Below, piece after piece: positions 8,452 through 59,488 of a stretch of DNA of 64,000 nucleotides. The notes under the pieces were generated by a model. It was not told where the DNA came from. It did no database searches and saw only the letters and a list, made by a program, of their open reading frames with translations. This DNA is from Patescibacteria group bacterium. Its GTDB lineage: Bacteria > Patescibacteriota > Patescibacteriia > JACRDY01. The stretch lies in NCBI GenBank assembly GCA_041653535.1, contig JBAZFH010000001.1, positions 6,052-70,051 on the forward strand, written 5' to 3'. A program made the position numbers and the translations under genes. How positions within the stretch are numbered: the first letter of the stretch is position 1; each line of letters opens with the position of its first letter.

Positions 8452-8526
8452 TGGTGACCCCACGGGGAATCGAACCCCGATTGCCAGGATGAAAACCTGG
8501 TGTCCTAACCGTTAGACGATAGGGCC
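8452..8526 (-). tRNA. tRNA-Glu (anticodon UUC)
   Basis: Reverse complement folds as a cloverleaf with anticodon loop TTTTCAT, T-loop GGTTCGATTCC and encoded CCA. Confidence 0.85.
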
Positions 8527-8653
8527 AGAAATTAGTATATAGGTCTTAGTATGTAGGTCTTGGGGGGTACTTTAAAAATATTTAATGATTATTTTAGAAT
8601 TTTTTTAATATGGCTTGAGTATAATATGATTATTATTAATAATCCATATATTT

Positions 8654-9025
8654 ATGAAACAACATGTTAGGTCTTTTACTGGTTTAATATCTTGGCAGGA
8701 GGCCCGTAGGCTGACACTGAGCGTTTATCAAGCGACCAGTTTATTTCCAAAAAATGAGATATATGGTTTGACTAGTCAAATGCGTCGTGCGGCAGTGTCG
8801 GTCTGTTCTAATATAGCCGAGGGTTTTTCTCGAAAATCACGGGCGGAAAAAATACAATTTTACACCATAGCCAAGAGTTCTTTAACAGAATTGCAAAATC
8901 AGCTTATTATTTCTCTTGATGTTCATTATTTAGACAAAGAAGTTTTTCAAAGAATTTCCCTAGTATCCGTTGGCTGTTGTAAGCTGTTGTCAGGTTTGAT
9001 TCGCACTGCTGAAAATAAGCAGTAA
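8654..9025 (+). CDS. four-helix-bundle protein (TIGR02436 / 23S rRNA-IVS protein family, Avd-like)
   Basis: Hallmark LTSQMRRAAVSVCSNIAEG motif. The gene sits between a 17-bp perfect inverted repeat (8531-8547 and 9044-9060). Confidence 0.75.
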   Translation: MKQHVRSFTGLISWQEARRLTLSVYQATSLFPKNEIYGLTSQMRRAAVSVCSNIAEGFSRKSRAEKIQFYTIAKSSLTELQNQLIISLDVHYLDKEVFQRISLVSVGCCKLLSGLIRTAENKQ

Positions 9026-12613: not shown

Positions 12614-12889
12614 CGGCTAGTTGCTAGCTGCTAGCAAATAAAAAAATCCCCGAATACCTGCAGTCAAGAAATTTTTTTAGCGTAATGATCCAGCCGGAGC
12701 CGGAACACCCGCTAGAAAAATTCCATGCTTGTCGTGACCGCAGGTATTAGGGGATACTACCCACAAAATAAAACATAAGTTCTGTTCCGTGAGTAATAGA
12801 GTAGCTTAACATATCCCAATATCTTTGTCAATAGTTGTGTTTAAAAGTGGTGATAAGATATTGTTTTTTTGTTTAAAATTAGGTTTTTA

Positions 12890-12918
12890 TTGACAAATAA
12901 GCTTTTAACGATTAGAAT
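12890..12918 (+). promoter_or_regulatory. sigma70-like promoter for tRNA-Leu (TTGACA-17-TAGAAT)
   Basis: Near-consensus -35 and -10 hexamers about 15 nt upstream of the tRNA 5' end. Confidence 0.55.
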
Positions 12919-12933
12919 ATGAAATAACTTGTG

Positions 12934-13018
12934 GGCGGGTGGTGAAATTGGTAGACACGCTAGCCTTAGGAGCTGGTGCCCAAAAGGCATGGAGGTTCGA
13001 GTCCTCTCCCGCCCACCA
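12934..13018 (+). tRNA. tRNA-Leu (anticodon UAG), type II with long variable arm
   Basis: Acceptor GGGCGGG/CCCGCCC, anticodon loop CTTAGGA, long variable arm, T-loop GGTTCGAGTCC, discriminator A and encoded CCA. Confidence 0.85.
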
Positions 13019-13189
13019 ATTTGATTTTAACTTAAAGTGAAAATACACCGTTTCGTAGGTGTATTTTTTGTTTATATTTAGCATAAAAACAGTTGATTGA
13101 GGAAAAAAATGTTGACATAAAATATAACCTGTGCTATTATAAACAATCATGTTGTGTTCATGGATTATTTAAAAATATGAACATGGATG

Positions 13190-13735
13190 TAACCAACAAA
13201 CCGCCATCACCAAATAGGAGGATTGTCTCGATGGGATTGTAGGTTTAAGCGCCTTGGGCACAGGCGCTATAACTAAGTATCTGTGCCTCCTTTGGTGGCG
13301 CTACTGTCGATTAATAGGGCGGTGGCGCATCATCGTAGATTCAGACTCTCATAGTCGGAGAGTCTGAAAAACCAATACGGGGAGAAAAAATGATTGGTCG
13401 CTATGTTATGTGAGCGCCAGGTTGATTCGGCGCTATAACAGCCTGAAAAGAAGTAAGGCGTCCTGAAGCATTGTTTGTCAGCTTTAGGATAAATAGACAG
13501 CCCGACGTGCAGTTGCGTCGTAAAAAAATAATTGCCGGAGTAAGTTCTTTTGCCCAATTTTTATCTCTTTACGAGCGGGAGATTGGCAGCTGCTAGGTAC
13601 CAGCAGAAAAAAGGAACACAATGTACTTCGTTAACGCGCTTTCGATTATTATGCGCGTATAAACATTATCACGTTACCGCGCGCCGCGACCTTTGGGTGT
13701 TAGCGCGGAACGTCGAAAAAAATGCGATCATATCA
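13190..13735 (+). ncRNA. candidate large structured non-coding RNA of unknown class, co-oriented downstream of tRNA-Leu
   Basis: Roughly 550 nt with no credible ORF on either strand. Multiple nested perfect stems: caccaaataggagg/cctcctttggtg, cagactctc/gagagtctg, accaat/attggt, gcgcc/ggcgc, cgacg/cgtcg. Motif GGCGCTATAAC occurs twice. Bounded by the tRNA promoter upstream and a strong intrinsic terminator at 13737-13775. Confidence 0.3.
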
Positions 13736-13736
13736 T

Positions 13737-13775
13737 GCCCCCGGCTTAGGTCGGGGGCTTTTCATTTTTTTTTAA
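13737..13775 (+). terminator. intrinsic terminator (GCCCCCGgcttaggtCGGGGGC + T-run), followed by a second A/T-flanked hairpin that can act bidirectionally
   Basis: Perfect 7-bp GC stem followed by ttttcattttttttt. Adjacent hairpin AAAACCCG...CGGGTTTT (13778-13805) serves the convergent minus-strand gene. Confidence 0.65.
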
Positions 13776-13819
13776 AAAAGAAAACCCGACTTTTTATGCC
13801 GGGTTTTTTAGTGGGATTT

Positions 13820-14278
13820 TTAGCCTGCTTTTTCCAGCGCTTTTGTCAGAGTCTCAATAAATTCTTCGGAACTCATGTCGTTGCCGATCAGACCGGATGT
13901 CCACTTGAAAGGTTTTTTGTCTTTGGATCCGGCTTTCAACTCCTCAAATCTTTGGCGGGTCAGAACTTTGATGTGGTTGTCTTTGACGGGCTCATCGCGA
14001 AAGATTTTTCGCTGGAGTATGCCAAGGTCAAAGGCAAGGCCAAGCGATTCATTGACCAGTACCATGAACTCTGTCATAACACTTTGTCGCGGTGGTAACA
14101 GTTTGGCTACCTGCAGCAACAAGTCTTTGTCCAGACAAAGAAACATGTCTTCCTTGCCGTCGACGTCGATCATTTCGGCGGGGAAAAAGCCCATCAGTCC
14201 GTGCTTGAGCTCAAGTAAATAAGCCGTTGCTAGTTTCCAGCCGGTCAAATCCTGACCAAGTAGTGTCTTGTGATTCAC
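13820..14278 (-). CDS. hypothetical protein
   Basis: 152-aa ORF with GTG start preceded by AAGGAGGtattc RBS; a bidirectional terminator lies downstream. Confidence 0.6.
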   Translation of the reverse strand: MNHKTLLGQDLTGWKLATAYLLELKHGLMGFFPAEMIDVDGKEDMFLCLDKDLLLQVAKLLPPRQSVMTEFMVLVNESLGLAFDLGILQRKIFRDEPVKDNHIKVLTRQRFEELKAGSKDKKPFKWTSGLIGNDMSSEEFIETLTKALEKAG

Positions 14279-14468: not shown

Positions 14469-14496
14469 TTGACATATATTTTAGGAGGTATATAAT
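14469..14496 (+). promoter_or_regulatory. rRNA promoter (TTGACA-16-TATAAT)
   Basis: Consensus sigma70 hexamers about 370 nt upstream of the 23S 5' end. Confidence 0.6.
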
Positions 14497-14866
14497 GTAG
14501 GAGCTAAAAATAAAGCTTGTCCACGATTTTAAATATATGCGTAAAAATAACCTAATCAATAACGTTCTAGGCGGCTAGCAAGGAAATTTTTGTGCTATAT
14601 GGGACCGCTTAGAAGGCGGTTTTTTTAGTCAGCAGTAGAAAGCGAGTATTTTAACCTTTAGTGACTAAATGAAAATGACTCAGAGTCGTTTGGTCAGTGA
14701 AGGCTAAAGAGAAACGGAAAAACCGAACTTTAACAATTGAATCGAGGAATAATATTCCAACGTCAAAATGAAAATATAATTTTCGTCAAATTACGAAGAA
14801 GTAATATTAGAGAGTCTAATTAAAAAAATACATACTAAGCAAGGATTGTGTTTTCACAATTCTTGT

Positions 14867-18098
<3,232 letters not shown>

Positions 18099-18169
18099 AA
18101 TTATAAGAACATAAATTCAGATTATTATATTTAAATTTTGTACGTTACCATAGAAAAATGGTGATATTG

Positions 18170-18280
18170 TCCTGGTGCTTCCAGCAAGAGGGCCACACCT
18201 GTTTCCATTCCGAACACAGAAGTTAAGCCTCTTAGCGCCGATGATACTTAATAAGGGAAAGTAGGTCAGCGCCGGGACAA
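18170..18280 (+). rRNA. rrf: 5S ribosomal RNA
   Basis: CCTGGTGcttccagcaagagggccacacctgtttccattccgaacacagaagttaagc... matches bacterial 5S. Flanking processing stem ggtgatattgtcc/ggacaatgtcacc. Confidence 0.85.
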
Positions 18281-20239: not shown

Positions 20240-22531
20240 ATGTATCATTTTAAAACTATTCAAGACATCGACATTTCTTACAAAAAAGTTTTACTCCGTG
20301 TAGCGCTCGATATCCCGCTGCGGCACGGCAAAGTAGCCGAAGATTATCGCATTAGACAGATACTGCCAACGCTTGCCTATTTGCTCAAAAAAAATTGTAG
20401 CGCGGTGATTGTTACTTGGCTCGGTCGACCTGATGGCAAAGTGATGGAAGAATATCGGCTCGACCCGGTAGCAAAACGTTTGTCGCAGCTGATCCGTCGA
20501 CCTGTAAAAAAAGTAAATGATTGTGTCGGTCCGGAATCGCAAAAAGCGGTTTTTGATTTGGAACCAGGAGAAATATTGATGTTAGAAAATACTCGTTTTC
20601 ATCCTGAGGAAATGAGCGCCGATCCTGATTTTACTCGTCGGCTAGCCGATGGTTTTGATATTGAAGTGTTTGACGGCTTTGCTCAAAGTCACCGCGTTCA
20701 TGCATCGACTACCGGATTACTCGATTATTTGCCGACGGTTTCCGGGTTTTTATTGCAAAAAGAAATGGACGCACTGGGTGGAGTCTTGCATCAGCCATCT
20801 CGTCCATTGACTTTGATCATTGGCGGTGCCAAAGTTTCCGACAAAATCGGCCTGACGGCTAATTTGATTTCCAAAGCCGACAAGGTTTTGATTGGCGGAG
20901 TTTGTGCTAGCGTTTTTATCAAAGCTCGCGGTCAAGATGTGGGGCAGTCTTATCTAGCCGATGTTTTCGTGAATCAAGCCAAAAAAGGTGGTAAAAAAGA
21001 TTATTTTGCTATCGCCAAATTTTTGCTCAAAAAATATCCAAACAAAATAATGTTGCCACTCGACATGATTGCTGCCAGTGATAAAAAGGGGACGAAAACC
21101 AAGGTGGTTGATTTGGTTACCGATGACATTCCCAAGGGTTGGTCGTTTTTTGATATCGGTCCGGAAACGGTAAAAATGTTTGCCAAACAAATCAATCGCA
21201 GCAAAACCGTACTCTGGAACGGCCCGATGGGAATGTATGAAAATAAGAAATTTGAAACCGGTACTGCTAGTTTGGTTAAAGCCGTAGCTGGTAGCGACGC
21301 TGTTTCTATCGGTGGCGGTGGCGACACTGAAGAGTTGATCGGCAAATACGGTCTCGCTGGCAAGTTTTCTCATGTTTCTACCGGTGGCGGAGCGATGTTG
21401 GAATTTTTATCCGGTAAAAAACTGCCGGTACTCGAAGCAATGGTAAAAAATCAGCACAATATCAGGCTTTGGCGACTCGGACCAAAACCGGTTGTTGCTT
21501 TTACCAAGGAAAACAATCCGTATTTTCGTTATCCTTTCCATAACCTCAAAGAAATTCTTGGCCCGGCGCAAAGAAATAAATTTGGCGTGCCGGCTTGTAA
21601 CATTCGTTCCAAATATATTTTGGACGCTGTACTGCAAGCGGCTTTTGAAGAGCGTTCTCCGGTAATACTCGAGATAGCCGAGTCGGAGATGGGATATTGC
21701 AATATTCCTCCCGAGCGGATGATCGATCTGGTTTTGGAGCGACTGCCAAAATTGGAAAAAAAGTTTGGCTACCGCGTTCCTGTTTGTCTGCATGCCGATC
21801 ATATGCAAAAAGATTTACTCCTAGCAGAAAGAGCGATGAAAGCCGGATTTTCCTCGGCGCTGATTGATCAGTCAGCTTATCCGCTGGACTACAATATTTC
21901 AGTGGTCAGATCTTTTGTCCAAAAAGCGCACCCGCTCGGTATTACGATTGAAGGTGAAATCGGTCAGATCGGTCAAGGAATGTCTGGCAAAGGTCAATTG
22001 GTTGGTAAAGATGTTCTAACGCATGCGCCGTCGGTGCATGAAGCGGTTGAATTTATTTCCCAGACGGGAGTCGATGCTTTTGCCGGATTTTTTGGCAACT
22101 ATCACGGTAAGTACGAAAAAGAGGCAACTATCGTTTGGCCGCGGATCAAGCAAATTGATAAACAGATCAAAAAAAGAGTTTGGACTGTGCCGATAGTTTT
22201 ACATGGTACCAGTTATCTGCGTACCAAAGACTTTGATCATATCAAGGTGTATCACCAGGCAATCAAATGCGGTATGCACAAGTTTAATTATGGAACGATG
22301 CTTTCTGATATTTTTAAAGACTATTTGCCGCAAAAGTTGGTAGACAAGATGGACAATTTTGCCGAGGGCGGCGAAGAAAATTGGAAAAAAGGACTGGGAC
22401 ATTATGAAAAAGAAATCGATGCGCTAGATCCAGCGGTACTAAAAAAAGCCGTAGATGGTATCAAAAAGCATGTCAAAGAGATGATGAAAAAGGCGTGGTA
22501 TTGTTCGGGAAAGGTGAAGTTATACAAATAG
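20240..22531 (+). CDS. pgk: fusion protein: phosphoglycerate kinase (N-terminal, about 400 aa) + class II fructose-bisphosphate aldolase (C-terminal, about 360 aa)
   Basis: N-terminal Pgk motifs (KKVLLRVALDIPL ... STGGGAML). C-terminal class II FBA motifs (LHADH, ALIDQS, EGEIG, GFFGNYHG, LHGTS). Single uninterrupted 763-aa ORF. Confidence 0.8.
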   Translation: MYHFKTIQDIDISYKKVLLRVALDIPLRHGKVAEDYRIRQILPTLAYLLKKNCSAVIVTWLGRPDGKVMEEYRLDPVAKRLSQLIRRPVKKVNDCVGPESQKAVFDLEPGEILMLENTRFHPEEMSADPDFTRRLADGFDIEVFDGFAQSHRVHASTTGLLDYLPTVSGFLLQKEMDALGGVLHQPSRPLTLIIGGAKVSDKIGLTANLISKADKVLIGGVCASVFIKARGQDVGQSYLADVFVNQAKKGGKKDYFAIAKFLLKKYPNKIMLPLDMIAASDKKGTKTKVVDLVTDDIPKGWSFFDIGPETVKMFAKQINRSKTVLWNGPMGMYENKKFETGTASLVKAVAGSDAVSIGGGGDTEELIGKYGLAGKFSHVSTGGGAMLEFLSGKKLPVLEAMVKNQHNIRLWRLGPKPVVAFTKENNPYFRYPFHNLKEILGPAQRNKFGVPACNIRSKYILDAVLQAAFEERSPVILEIAESEMGYCNIPPERMIDLVLERLPKLEKKFGYRVPVCLHADHMQKDLLLAERAMKAGFSSALIDQSAYPLDYNISVVRSFVQKAHPLGITIEGEIGQIGQGMSGKGQLVGKDVLTHAPSVHEAVEFISQTGVDAFAGFFGNYHGKYEKEATIVWPRIKQIDKQIKKRVWTVPIVLHGTSYLRTKDFDHIKVYHQAIKCGMHKFNYGTMLSDIFKDYLPQKLVDKMDNFAEGGEENWKKGLGHYEKEIDALDPAVLKKAVDGIKKHVKEMMKKAWYCSGKVKLYK

Positions 22532-25905: not shown

Positions 25906-26104
25906 TGGGTTATCTCCTTTTTGAAAATTGGTTTTGATGGTCGTCCTAGATTACTGCAATTCGGCAGAAAAAGCAATATCCACAGCCTGATTGACAGCTG
26001 GCTGGTTATGCTTTATAATAATTAGTCCTTTAACAATCTATAAACGATCACGTTGTGTTCCTACTGTATTATAAATAGCCATAGGCTATGGAAAGGAGAG
26101 CGCA

Positions 26105-26425
26105 ATGTCTCTGATTTGTATTGAGAATGGAAGGGATGTCATTTTTGGCGAGACGTTGATGGCTGCGACCCGGCCGGGCGGAAAAATATTTTCGGCTCTG
26201 AGTCCGGAAGTGATCGATTCGATTCCCGAGACGGAACGTAAATATCAGCCGTCGCAACCGGGAGAAGGTGGTGTTCACATCCACCTGGCGACATCGGATA
26301 TAAACTGGAACGGCGCTTATACAGTCGTTGATTTCGCCTTGGGCGAGTTTTTTTTCTCGATTTCCGAGGAAACCGCCGTCAGGTATTTGCCCAACTTCGT
26401 TGGGCGGTTTCCGGCTACTGCCTAA
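26105..26425 (+). CDS. hypothetical protein
   Basis: RBS GGAAAGGAGAG; intrinsic terminator at 26436-26464. The overlapping antisense ORF 26069..26437 is judged spurious. Confidence 0.45.
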   Translation: MSLICIENGRDVIFGETLMAATRPGGKIFSALSPEVIDSIPETERKYQPSQPGEGGVHIHLATSDINWNGAYTVVDFALGEFFFSISEETAVRYLPNFVGRFPATA

Positions 26426-46410: not shown

Positions 46411-47355
46411 AACTGCCTTTATTGTATCATAGTTTGATAAATGAAAAGAGCAGGGGGGGACCTGCTCCGCGGGCAAAAACACCGACATGGCGTTTTTGTT
46501 TTTTTGGTTGCTGTTGAGAAGGCGTCGCTAGGTTTTCTCTGCCCCCCAAAACCATGTAAACACCCTCTGGCGTCCTGTCGTTCCAAATTTGATGGAATGG
46601 TTAATAGTGTTGTGACTACAGAACACAACAGGACTAGGCATGTGCACTGATGGTATTTATTATTTTATTCTTTTTTAGGAACATGTCAATATTGATTTTT
46701 AAAGTAATAAAAAGACCCGAGTCAGTTGCGGCTCGGGCTATTTTTGCGGTTAGTTTAAGGCCGAGCCAGAGGAATATGGTGAGGATACCCATAAACCTCT
46801 GGCGTACTCTATGGTGGTGCCATTTTTTGGCGATTTTTGACGGTTTTCCTCTGAACCGTCAGGCACCTGGTCGCTTTGGTAGGCGTAAAGCCGCTAGCAA
46901 ATAAATTGCCTCGGCTTGCTACGGGCATCGCCACGCCATACTCACAGCGGTCGAGAACCCCACGGGTCTGCTTGATGATCAAGAGGAGGGCAAGATCTCC
47001 GCAGGGTTCGTCGCGCGCAACGCCGCCTCGGTCACGAGATTTATACTGGGCGGTAGTTGCGAAAAAAATCAAATCAAGTTGACAGCCCAGAGACAACTCC
47101 AGCCTCTCCTCAATATTCTGACCATCTTATTAACCAATGGCAGAGAAAAGGAGGTTTTGGCATTAGTGTCCCTGGGTCCAGTGACGCAAATTAATAGCGT
47201 CAATCTGGAAAATTTAAATTGTTAATATTTAATACTTCAGCTTGATTAGGTATTATTGCACAGTAGTATTTTTTTGTCAATACTTTGGATGCAGATTCGG
47301 TAAAAGTTGGTTTAATTTGTTTAAATTTAGATAAAAATATGGGAAATATTTTATC

Positions 47356-47386
47356 CACAAAAAGAGACCTGATGGTGCAGGTCTCC
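47356..47386 (-). terminator. intrinsic terminator on minus strand
   Basis: AGAGACCTG-atggtg-CAGGTCTC hairpin followed (minus sense) by TTTTTGTGG. Confidence 0.55.
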
Positions 47387-47580
47387 TGTGGTTGAATTGT
47401 ATTAATCTTTGTGGTAATGAATTATGTGTGGTGCAATCTTGGGGGCGAAGGGCTGCACTTACGCTTCGGCGGTAAACGATATAACTAATTCCACGTCGGT
47501 TTCCTTTTTGCTGCTTGTTTCGCATGTTTGCTTAATTTATGTTTAACCGTTTTAATAACTATTGTTAACAATGGAAAGCA

Positions 47581-47608
47581 TTGATTTAAGACAAAAAGGT
47601 GATATAAT
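47581..47608 (+). promoter_or_regulatory. promoter TTGATT-16-TATAAT (extended TGn) driving the leader element + tRNA-Ile
   Basis: Near-consensus hexamers about 135 nt upstream of tRNA-Ile; the leader contains a partial copy of the GC-rich element. Confidence 0.55.
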
Positions 47609-47621
47609 GCGAGGGAATTGA

Positions 47622-47710
47622 TATTTGCGTATGCCTGCCTGCCGGCAGGCAGGTAGCTTCCACCCAAGGCGGACAGGCAGCGGTTATGCTCCTGCTTCGC
47701 GGGAGGGGTG
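47622..47710 (+). repeat. partial copy (5' module) of the GC-rich element family in the tRNA-Ile leader
   Basis: atgcctgcctgccggcaggcagg matches the family 5' module; hairpin ctcctgcttcgcgggagg. Confidence 0.5.
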
Positions 47711-47744
47711 CATTTTACAATTTGGTTTTTTACTTTTTATTTAT

Positions 47745-47820
47745 GCGCGTGTAGCTCAGCGGTTAGAGCATCGCCCTTATAAGGCGGGGGTCGATGGTTC
47801 AAATCCATCCACGCGCACCA
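47745..47820 (+). tRNA. tRNA-Ile (anticodon UAU)
   Basis: Acceptor GCGCGTG/CACGCGC, anticodon stem TCGCC/GGCGG with loop CTTATAA (U33, anticodon TAT, A37), T-loop GGTTCAAATCC, encoded CCA. Confidence 0.75.
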
Positions 47821-48096: not shown

Positions 48097-48263
48097 CAGC
48101 AGCACTAATATTTAGTAGTTATTAATTTGTAATTTGAAATTATCTTTTGGGCGTATAGCTTCCACCTACGCCCTCATTACATTCGGGCTTCGGCGGACAA
48201 GCATCTGGTATTTCACCATTTGCCTGCCAGTCGAAGCTCGCCAGTAATGGCGAGTGTAGATTG

Positions 48264-48317
48264 GGGCGGTTAGCTCAGTTTCTGCCAGAGGCAGACCCGC
48301 CTTCGGCGGGGGTTAGA
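48264..48317 (+). pseudogene. tRNA-Val 5' fragment (GGGCGGTTAGCTCAG) fused to a 34-nt GC double-hairpin insert
   Basis: 15-nt exact duplicate of the 5' end of tRNA-Val at 48564, followed by tttctgccagaggcagacccgccttcggcggggg + ttaga. The same 48-nt junction recurs at 48683-48730. Confidence 0.6.
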
Positions 48318-48563
48318 TTGTTTTTTTATGTCGGGAATATATGTTTTAAAAAGTTTAAAAAACGGTAAAAGATATGTGGGTAGTACTCGTAAAGATGTAG
48401 ATTTAAGGTTGAAAGAGCATAATTATGGGTCAAATGTTTGGACTAGGCAAAACGGACCTTTTAAATTAATTTATAAAGAAGGTTTTACTGACTATAAAGA
48501 TGCTTTGAAAAGAGAAAGATTTTTGAAGTCAGGCCAAGGCAGAAAATTTTTAGATAGTATTTT
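48279..48563 (+). mobile_element. roughly 285-bp insertion carrying a GIY-YIG nuclease gene, flanked by a 15-bp direct duplication of the tRNA-Val 5' end
   Basis: Direct repeats gggcggttagctcag at 48264-48278 and 48564-48578. The insert begins with two GC hairpins (ctgcc-aga-ggcag; cccgcc-ttc-ggcggg). Confidence 0.5.
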
Positions 48564-48682: not shown

Positions 48683-48783
48683 TTAGCTCAGTTTCTGCCA
48701 GAGGCAGACCCGCCTTCGGCGGGGGTTAGAGCGTTACATTGACATTGTAAAGGTCCGTGGTTCGAGTCCACGTATGCCCACCA
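48683..48783 (+). pseudogene. 5'-truncated second tRNA-Val(GAC)-like gene, D-arm onward, with the same 34-nt insert in its D-loop
   Basis: ttagctcag + 34-nt insert + ttagagcgttacattgacattgtaa ... ggttcgagtcc ... tatgcccACCA. No matching 5' acceptor strand (GGGCATA) upstream. Confidence 0.55.
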
Positions 48784-59052: not shown

Positions 59053-59188
59053 ACAATAAGTCAGAACCCCCGTTCGTCTAGGCGAATGGGGGTTTTAAAA
59101 TTGCTCCCTTCTGTGTGCGGTGAAGGCGTTTGTTAATAAGTTCTTGGATAATGAAACGAACACCTTTATTTTACTATTAGTTTTTTGC

Positions 59189-59377
59189 CCTCATGCCGGG
59201 CCGGCAGATACTTTCTGCAAACAGAAAGTATCCAAAGATTTTCGGGGGTGGCATAAACCCGAGTTTATAGCACCTTAAGGTTTTCTTACCCCGCCTCAAC
59301 CCATTCCGCTCGCCCCGCCAAGGCGGGGCTCGACTCTCAGGGTTTCGGCTCGGGGCAATGCCACCCCCGAACCCCCG
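59189..59377 (+). repeat. GC-rich structured element, family copy B
   Basis: ctcatgccgggccggcag; central perfect hairpin gatactttctg-caaa-cagaaagtatc; gattttcgggggtggcataaacccgag; caccttaaggtt; 3' tcggctcggggcaatgccacccccgaacccccg. Confidence 0.7.
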
Positions 59378-59488
59378 TAATTTTAGTATTTTAATATTTT
59401 TTTAAAACACCTGCCCTCGCGCAGATTTGTCGTCCTTAATTTTTCGATTTAAAAAACCGTCCTACTGTATAGCGGGACGGTTGGTTTT

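Follow-up and report, generated by a model that had tools for sequence, protein, structure and literature searches.

Bacteria have few large structured non-coding RNAs, and with each class newly described some unexpected biology has come to light: ROOL and GOLLD assemble into nanocages, OLE into dimers. The bacteria belonging to the Candidate Phyla Radiation (CPR, Patescibacteria) are uncultured episymbionts whose tiny genomes hold little spare DNA, and no report of a lineage-specific large RNA in this group was found. The present analysis concerns such a possible RNA in a stretch of 64,000 nucleotides (nt) from a Patescibacteria group bacterium (contig JBAZFH010000001.1 of assembly GCA_041653535.1, positions 6,052 to 70,051). 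This whole stretch is called the window, and all coordinates count from its first letter. The interval between the gene for tRNA-Leu and that for a protein of 152 amino acids (aa) is read here, tentatively and with somewhat less than even confidence, as a lineage-specific, stand-alone gene for a non-coding RNA of ~620 nt, independently transcribed from the + strand. The VanW matches of the host point to Falkowbacteria-like Patescibacteria, and the candidate RNA would so far be known solely from this lineage.

Among the closest described systems, ROOL and GOLLD are carried by phages and prophages, often near tRNA islands, and the candidate resembles them and OLE as a putative stand-alone RNA of ~600 nt with many helices, encoded beside a tRNA gene (PMC12286853). 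It differs from ROOL and GOLLD in adjoining a single tRNA-Leu instead of a tRNA island, and from all three in having neither a covariance-model match nor a phage or prophage context, in that no conserved homologs were found for it, in lacking the tetraloop and A-minor hallmarks, and in being unusually structured in its 5′ third only. RNase P RNAs are reported to be diverged in some CPR bacteria, and they can miss the Rfam cut-offs and carry large helix extensions (PMC8172020). The candidate comes from the same type of organism, in which stable-RNA genes can be missed by such cut-offs, but it is without the universally conserved P4 strands and gave no sub-threshold match. TIGR arrays, which pair with Tas (Nop-domain) proteins, also occur in CPR bacteria as a series of hairpins leading to a rho-independent terminator beside a small unannotated protein gene (PMC12045711). 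In the candidate, however, the units are 166 and 222 nt apart and not in tandem, no tandem family was found, and loops of 9-13 nt are too small for two 8-12-nt spacers plus box C/D. The working model is taken by analogy from the protein-sequestering RNAs of the CsrB/RsmZ type, which act in trans and carry several copies of a short hairpin module, although the candidate has only three modules, is without the GGA loop motif, and varies its loops while keeping the stems and a 3′ AUAAC.

Transcription signals and coding potential of the interval

The case for a gene would be built on several features read from the DNA: a promoter-terminator pair, the length and GC content of the gap, a structured 5′ domain, three hairpin modules, the lack of coding signal and the location in a cluster of stable-RNA genes. 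The signals that would delimit the transcript, and those of the adjoining genes, are as follows.

12890-12918, + strand: promoter of tRNA-Leu, TTGACA-17-TAGAAT (consensus scan)
13039-13068, + strand: terminator-like hairpin and T-run closing the tRNA-Leu unit (consensus scan)
13112-13140, + strand: sigma-70-type promoter TTGACA-17-TATTAT with TG ahead, an extended -10 (consensus scan)
13138-13159, + strand: 22-nt box TATAAACAATCATGTTGTGTTC at the transcript start, containing AACR-ATCA-YGTT
13147-13775, + strand: predicted primary transcript of ~620-630 nt (promoter and terminator geometry)
13737-13775, + strand: intrinsic terminator, a stem of 9 base pairs (bp), 8 of them G-C, at 13737-13758, then a T-run
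13781-13807, - strand: separate terminator of the convergent 152-aa gene, outside the candidate RNA

The candidate promoter fits the sigma-70 consensus nearly as well as the adjoining tRNA and rRNA promoters. On both strands of the 64 kb, 14 sites score at least 11/12 against that consensus, and these include the promoters of tRNA-Leu, the candidate RNA and the 23S gene. An earlier note on this DNA had taken the tRNA-Leu promoter to be the only one upstream, which is wrong, and had proposed a co-transcript of the tRNA and a large RNA. Because the interval has its own promoter, and because a terminator-like hairpin follows tRNA-Leu, an independent transcript is indicated and co-transcription appears unlikely; promoter and terminator context should be checked before a tRNA co-transcript is proposed. 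The sigma-70 promoter would fire ~130 nt past tRNA-Leu, with a predicted start near 13145-13148. The transcript would open with a terminal stem-loop, cross the ORF-free stretch (ORF, open reading frame) and end at the terminator, whose strength the earlier note had judged correctly, just ahead of the terminator of the convergent gene.

The 22-nt box at the start of the candidate recurs with 20/22 identical positions at 26039-26060, downstream of a perfect TTGACA-17-TATAAT promoter, and 100 shuffles gave 0 such matches. This second copy lies in the 5′ leader of a 106-aa gene (26105-26425). The shared box reads TATAAAC(A/G)ATCA(T/C)GTTGTGTTC, and both differences are compensatory within the AACR-ATCA-YGTT palindrome. 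The box may be a common operator for both promoters; its place at the RNA start and its presence in one other promoter region would suggest regulated transcription.

The 801-nt gap at 13019-13819 is the longest non-coding interval of the window, if a 182-aa ORF that crosses both terminators and is antisense to the real 152-aa gene is judged spurious, as was done here. The list of gaps splits 13019-13819 at this ORF, and the listed part, 13019-13549, has a GC content of 0.395; 300-nt windows over the RNA body have 0.41-0.47, and most other gaps ~0.30-0.43. Upstream lies tRNA-Leu(TAG) (12933-13018, + strand; ARAGORN and Rfam). Downstream, on the - strand and convergent with the candidate, lies the 152-aa gene (13820-14278), which has real homologs, and beyond it are the 23S-5S rRNA genes (14866-18277; Rfam). 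With a conserved small RNA on the - strand, tRNA-Leu, the candidate and 23S-5S form a cluster of stable-RNA genes, and the gene neighbours (HSP20, VanW, the 152-aa protein and 23S-5S rRNA) are chromosomal core genes.

The view of the earlier note that no credible ORF lies between tRNA-Leu and the terminator was borne out. The longest ORFs of the gap have 49, 41 and 37 aa on the + strand and 75 and 45 aa on the - strand. A six-frame Pfam scan of the interval gave no family match, and a six-frame PHROG scan gave nothing credible, the best match being phrog_22524 (E=0.0014, in one frame). Searching with tblastn, using the proteins at the equivalent positions in relatives, left no credible trace in the interval, and no protein remnant was found. 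A search of 1.84 billion representative proteins gave no relative of the 41-aa ORF, and a word-indexed search gave no homolog of the 75-aa ORF of the - strand. A pseudogene or protein remnant was rejected on the grounds that the Pfam, PHROG, tblastn and ORF searches all gave nothing credible.

Predicted fold and repeated hairpin modules

The predicted fold of the + strand transcript, together with the three hairpin modules (M1 to M3), contains the following elements.

13151-13193, + strand: 5′-terminal stem-loop (predicted fold)
13208-13297, + strand: domain 1, closed by CACCAA/TTGGTG and AGGAGG/CCTCCT and enclosing M1 (predicted fold)
13242-13274, + strand: module M1, GGTT..AGCGCC-loop9-GGCGCT-ATAACT
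13298-13328, + strand: 11-bp hairpin GCGCTACTGTC/GGCGGTGGCGC, rich in G-U, with AUUAAU in the loop
13340-13368, + strand: perfect 11-bp hairpin TTCAGACTCTC/GAGAGTCTGAA
13391-13735, + strand: 3′ multibranch region closed by TGATTGGTCGC/GCGATCA.ATCA, loosely supported and marginally above chance
13404-13440, + strand: module M2, TGTTAT-gtg-AGCGCC-loop10-GGCGCT-ATAACA
13627-13664, + strand: module M3, GTTA-ACGCGC-loop13-GCGCGT-ATAAAC

The modules share a common design, in which a lower stem GUUA/UAAC carries an upper 6-bp stem of the form A-(G/C)5...(G/C)5-U, with AUAA(A)C coming next. M1 and M2 have AGCGCC/GGCGCU as their upper stem, M3 has ACGCGC/GCGCGU, and the loops, of 9, 10 and 13 nt, are unrelated in sequence while the stems are kept. 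Modules combining a GC hairpin with TATAA(A)C were found solely here in the 64 kb, spaced 166 and 222 nt apart, and TATAA(A)C itself has 5 copies on the + strand of 13100-13800 against 0.21 expected. The repeated motif pointed out in the earlier note is GGCGCTATAAC, an 11-nt exact repeat at 13263 and 13429, 166 nt apart. All stems listed in that note exist in the sequence, but its nesting of gcgcc/ggcgc and ggcacag/ctgtgcc does not hold, because the arms overlap and cannot co-form as nested stems: ggcacag (13257-13263) is part of the first hairpin's loop and shares 1 nt with the 3′ arm of that hairpin, and ctgtgcc (13281-13287) has 2 nt in common with the cctcct arm (13286-13291).

Folding of the region is clearly above chance, yet it is no unique outlier. 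A first estimate (20 shuffles, terminator included) gave z-scores of -8.4 on the + strand and -4.2 on the - strand and was later downgraded; for 13147-13735, without the terminator and with 100 shuffles, z is about -4.6 on + and -4.8 on -. The 5′ third contributes most of this signal: 13196-13372 has z = -5.45 on + and -3.55 on - (200 shuffles) and the 150-nt window at 13250 has -6.2 and -2.8. For 13372-13735, z is -2.2, and 3/100 shuffles fold equally well. In a coarse scan of the window, several other 400-nt windows reached z-scores of -5 to -7. The minimum free energy is -220 on + versus -186 on -, and -174 versus -171 when G-U pairs are forbidden; the extra stability of the + strand is thus due to G-U pairs only.

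In the proposed mechanism, the 5′ third (~13196-13372) would form compact long helices, more stable on the + strand, and the RNA would act in trans. The three similar hairpins would serve either to dock one protein repeatedly or to let the RNA associate with itself; on that view the RNA would be a scaffold or sponge and not a ribozyme or guide. It is conceivable, if doubtful, that the candidate is the founding member of an undescribed class of large (~600 nt), stand-alone, structured CPR RNAs, in which a 5′ domain is combined with three hairpin-AUAAC modules that recruit a protein or mediate self-assembly.

Comparative searches and rival explanations

Known families were searched with cmscan against Rfam 15, at the gathering threshold and at E<=10, on queries of three sizes, two of them 1101 nt and 641 nt long. 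No clean family match was found for the candidate, and even E<=10 returned only terminator-driven noise. ROOL (RF03087), GOLLD (RF01998), OLE (RF01071), HEARO (RF02033) and raiA (RF03072) had no match at E<=10. The signal recognition particle (SRP) RNA, 6S RNA and group I and II introns likewise had no Rfam match, as far as the models can see; SRP and 6S RNAs, rods of roughly 100-200 nt in which a domain IV motif or central bubble is expected, do not fit the size and the multibranch fold of the candidate. For RNase P RNA (RF00010/RF00011), the signs looked for were the P4 strands GGAAAGUCC... and ...ACAGAANCCGGCUUA forming a long-range helix, plus a model match, and, given the reported divergence of this RNA in CPR bacteria, P4 was checked by eye. 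No model match was obtained at E<=10 (641-nt query), a P4 5′ strand of the GGAAAGUCC type is absent, neither AAAGUC nor GAAAGU was seen, and the only CCGGCUUA lies in the terminator loop, without a complementary partner. Transfer-messenger RNA (tmRNA), marked by a tRNA-like acceptor/T-arm domain and a tag reading frame that runs to a stop, was found neither by ARAGORN in its default or -ps mode, -ps80 yielding implausible permuted calls only, nor by Rfam. With no P4 strand and with ARAGORN and Rfam empty, the landmarks of tmRNA, RNase P and SRP are absent, as the earlier note had stated.

Other candidates were also rejected. An RsmY match (12.5 bits) lies at 59312-59329, in a different region, and is irrelevant to the candidate RNA. 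A CRISPR array would have identical direct repeats of 25-37 nt at a regular spacing of ~60-70 nt, and the interval has only the 11-nt exact repeat, 166 nt apart. The 152-aa protein is predicted to adopt a beta-rich fold, matches Tic22 only weakly, and has no match in Pfam, NCBIfam or PADLOC or to Nop-domain proteins; a TIGR-Tas link through it was rejected from this predicted fold. Relatives carry the 152-aa gene without the RNA.

The nearest sampled relatives are distant, with 48-54% identity in VanW (loci L003, L004, L005, L054 and L055). The order HSP20-VanW-small RNA-tRNA-Leu is kept in 5/5 of them, but no similarity to the candidate RNA turned up in any of the five with blastn, with a covariance model or, for the loci to which it was applied, with nhmmer. 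The targets of blastn and nhmmer were the related loci L002-L007 and L054-L056; of these, L002, from a Berkelbacteria relative, lacks a similar RNA. The covariance model, built on 13205-13330 and run over ~116 kb of related loci plus the window, matched itself only. The 152-aa gene has three other protein clusters only, and a 54%-identical relative of it was found at four contig ends, presumably beside rRNA. No match to the candidate came from a 'distant'-mode blastn search of phages and plasmids. The pattern GGCGCTATAAC-N140-170-GGCGCTATAAC had 0 viral matches, and in viral contigs a single-module pattern gave 18 chance matches, a domain-1 helix pattern 0 and a protein-anchored search 0. The 26 metagenome matches to the twin GGCGCTATAAC were all unrelated repeats (tandem arrays, repeat-containing coding regions and dispersed repeats). 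Homologs with compensatory changes were not recovered, the nucleotide search of genomes and metagenomes consisting of one exact-pattern and one protein-anchored scan.

The chief rival explanation, serious even if somewhat unlikely, takes the interval for a lineage-specific spacer without function, left where a rearrangement joined two conserved blocks, HSP20-VanW-tRNA-Leu and 152-aa gene-23S-5S. The hairpins would then be incidental or derived from selfish inverted repeats, the promoter-like site fortuitous or tolerated, and the terminator a means of insulating the convergent gene. Several findings weigh against an RNA gene, and most of them speak at the same time for such a spacer. All 5/5 relatives have a protein gene 100-310 nt past tRNA-Leu and lack the candidate RNA. 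On the other flank, a cold-shock gene comes after the 54%-identical relative of the 152-aa gene, and the candidate is again absent. Synteny breaks on the VanW-tRNA side and on the 152-aa side, and the RNA therefore lies exactly at the breakpoint. No homolog was found by any route searched, Rfam at E<=10 included. By contrast, the relatives without the candidate clearly share the neighbouring small RNA. As for folding, the middle third resembles random sequence: 13450-13650 folds no better than shuffled sequence, and 150-nt windows starting at 13500-13600 have z ~0. The picture of an interval packed with structure, drawn in the earlier note, is overstated: the fold is above chance, chiefly in the 5′ third, but not in this part. 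The z-score of the whole transcript, -4.5 versus -4.8, has no strand preference, other windows of the genome reach similar values, and many of the stems are perfect, as in young inverted repeats. The predicted hairpin loops, of 6-13 nt, are without the GNRA or UNCG tetraloops that are usual in large natural RNAs, and pseudoknot alternatives for M1 and M2 are within chance (P=0.14 and 0.39).

What speaks against a spacer is that an 11/12 extended -10 promoter and a dedicated + strand terminator bracket 620 ORF-free nt in a lineage with small genomes. In addition, the GC content is above that of most other non-coding gaps, three paralogous modules keep their stems while their loops differ, and the 5′ domain is more stable on the + strand. 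The earlier note had regarded lack of conservation in close relatives as a sign of decay or junk; the candidate is indeed absent at the syntenic position, but the relatives sampled are so distant (about 50% amino-acid identity) that this absence does not settle the matter. The large non-coding RNA that the earlier note proposed is plausible, short of proof; the interval is non-coding, folds above chance and has a proper terminator.

An element acting at the level of DNA, whose palindromes GTTA..(G/C)5..(G/C)5..TAAC bind a protein for recombination, partition or regulation, is improbable. It would agree with the equal overall z-score of both strands, with their equal folding when G-U pairs are forbidden, and with the occurrence of TATAA(A)C in the promoter region as well. 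However, the arm spacings of 9, 10 and 13 nt are unusual for dimeric DNA binders, and this variability favours RNA hairpins over operators. The lower stems use G-U pairs and bulges, 5/5 copies of TATAA(A)C are on one strand, and no recombinase, Rep or Par gene was found adjoining the candidate. The GC skew is monotonic, with no switch, and the locus is therefore not a replication origin. In a test for an integration site, a second copy of the tRNA-Leu 3′ end was not found.

The comparison with ROOL and GOLLD made in the earlier note found no support, and an ornate RNA like these or OLE, self-assembling into an RNA-only multimer through kissing loops, deserves little credence. The length of ~620 nt and the position beside a tRNA do resemble ROOL and GOLLD (PMC12286853), and 6-nt palindromes occur in three loops (UUUAAA at 13170, AUUAAU at 13310 and GGUACC at 13596), but about one such loop palindrome is expected by chance and 2/3 are AU-only. 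Furthermore, RF03087, RF01998 and RF01071 had no match at E<=10, the surrounding genes belong to the chromosomal core, PHROG returned nothing credible for the six frames of the interval, searches of phage collections found nothing, and no GNRA loops are available for A-minor contacts.

It is very unlikely that the interval is an mRNA encoding tiny peptides or a small protein. Three Shine-Dalgarno-like sequences are properly spaced from start codons (AGGAGG-N9-AUG with 3 codons, GGGGAG-N5-AUG with 7 and AAGGA-N5-AUG with 13), and a TTG start would open the 41-aa ORF. That ORF, however, is the one without a relative among the representative proteins, no frame has a family match, GGAG/GAGG/AGGA are not enriched (~8 seen versus ~7 expected in a manual count), and the strongest Shine-Dalgarno sequence lies hidden inside a helix of 12 bp. 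Finally, a highly diverged housekeeping RNA missed by Rfam, either tmRNA or an RNase P RNA with large helix insertions, is extremely unlikely even though CPR RNase P RNAs can fall below the cut-offs and carry helix extensions (PMC8172020), the locus is a stable-RNA gene cluster and no rnpB or ssrA was detected within the window, because the P4 strand, the matches to RF00010, RF00011 and tmRNA models at E<=10 (641-nt query) and a tRNA-like end are all missing, CCGGCUUA occurs in the terminator loop only, ARAGORN found no tmRNA apart from implausible permuted calls at 80% thresholds, and 620 nt is ~1.6x the usual size.

Surroundings of the candidate RNA and its possible significance

A second RNA of this locus, the small structured one between VanW and tRNA-Leu (~12640-12800, - strand), is conserved in 6/6 Falkowbacteria-like genomes. 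It is a long hairpin that measures ~105 nt, and roughly 150-165 nt when its 5′ part is counted, and of its 44 predicted pairs 20/44 have compensatory changes. On the - strand it carries an apical C(UCCG)G tetraloop and the invariant loop GACAAGCAUGG; a U-tail is present in 4/6 genomes, and a TTGACA promoter is conserved near 12800-12835. Rfam gave no credible match for the window copy at E<=1 or for the L054 copy at E<=10. This small RNA may represent a new class or an SRP- or 6S-like RNA that has diverged, and the case for it as a novel RNA is stronger than that for the ~620-nt candidate. Its copies in the relatives are located as follows.

L003: 12048-12263
L004: 8465-8680
L005: 12305-12520
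L054: 8185-8400
L055: 5375-5590

Extra partial or interrupted copies of tRNA-Leu lie beside the real tRNA-Leu in L003 (12300-12730) and L054 (about 8480-8620), with repeated 5′ ends (GGGCGAGTGG) and 3′ ends (CTCTCTCGCCCATTT), and a tRNA-Leu-like sequence of L054 has an insertion of ~58 nt in the T-loop. These copies may be integration scars or intron-bearing pseudo-tRNAs. In the window itself, tRNA-Val-like sequences at 48150-48330 and 48684-48783 have a D-loop insertion of ~31 nt (TTCTGCCAGAGGCAGACCCGCCTTCGGCGGG). One of them is truncated and the other complete to CCA, with a partial Rfam tRNA match of 34 bits at 48722-48780, and between the two, at ~48376-48560, there may be a GIY-YIG-type ORF, seen by eye only.

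The 23S rRNA gene has a perfect promoter of its own (14469-14496) and no 16S gene upstream. The 23S match at 14866-18096 is 3231 nt long against a model of 2925 positions, and the 23S rRNA therefore has one or more insertions amounting to ~300 nt. At 8654-9025, 6 kb upstream of 23S, is a gene whose product belongs to PF05635, the '23S rRNA intervening sequence protein' family, and L054 has a PF05635 gene in the same relative position.

Further stretches of the window attracted attention. Between convergent genes, at 59160-59400 on the - strand, lies a GC-rich element of ~200 nt with an 11-bp closing helix GGGGGUGGCAU/AUGCCACCCCC, which contains GCUAUAAAC, has a z-score of -5.5 (200 shuffles) and matched no Rfam family at E<=10. 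The 1.25 kb at 46489-47744, upstream of tRNA-Ile(TAT) (47745-47820), are without an ORF of at least 120 aa and have near-consensus minus-strand promoters at 47280-47252 and 46689-46662, with z-scores of about -4 to -5 in 400-nt windows; this region may hold further non-coding RNAs. At 20240-22531, a single ORF of 763 aa fuses phosphoglycerate kinase (PF00162) to class-II fructose-bisphosphate aldolase (PF01116).

The immediate value of the ~620-nt RNA gene proposed for the interval between tRNA-Leu and the 152-aa gene is that of a flagged candidate, known from a single sequence. If the proposal is true, an RNA gene of 620 nt has been kept under a near-consensus promoter in a tiny genome, where it would therefore have a real cost and benefit, and it would offer a handle on biology that is specific to uncultured episymbionts.

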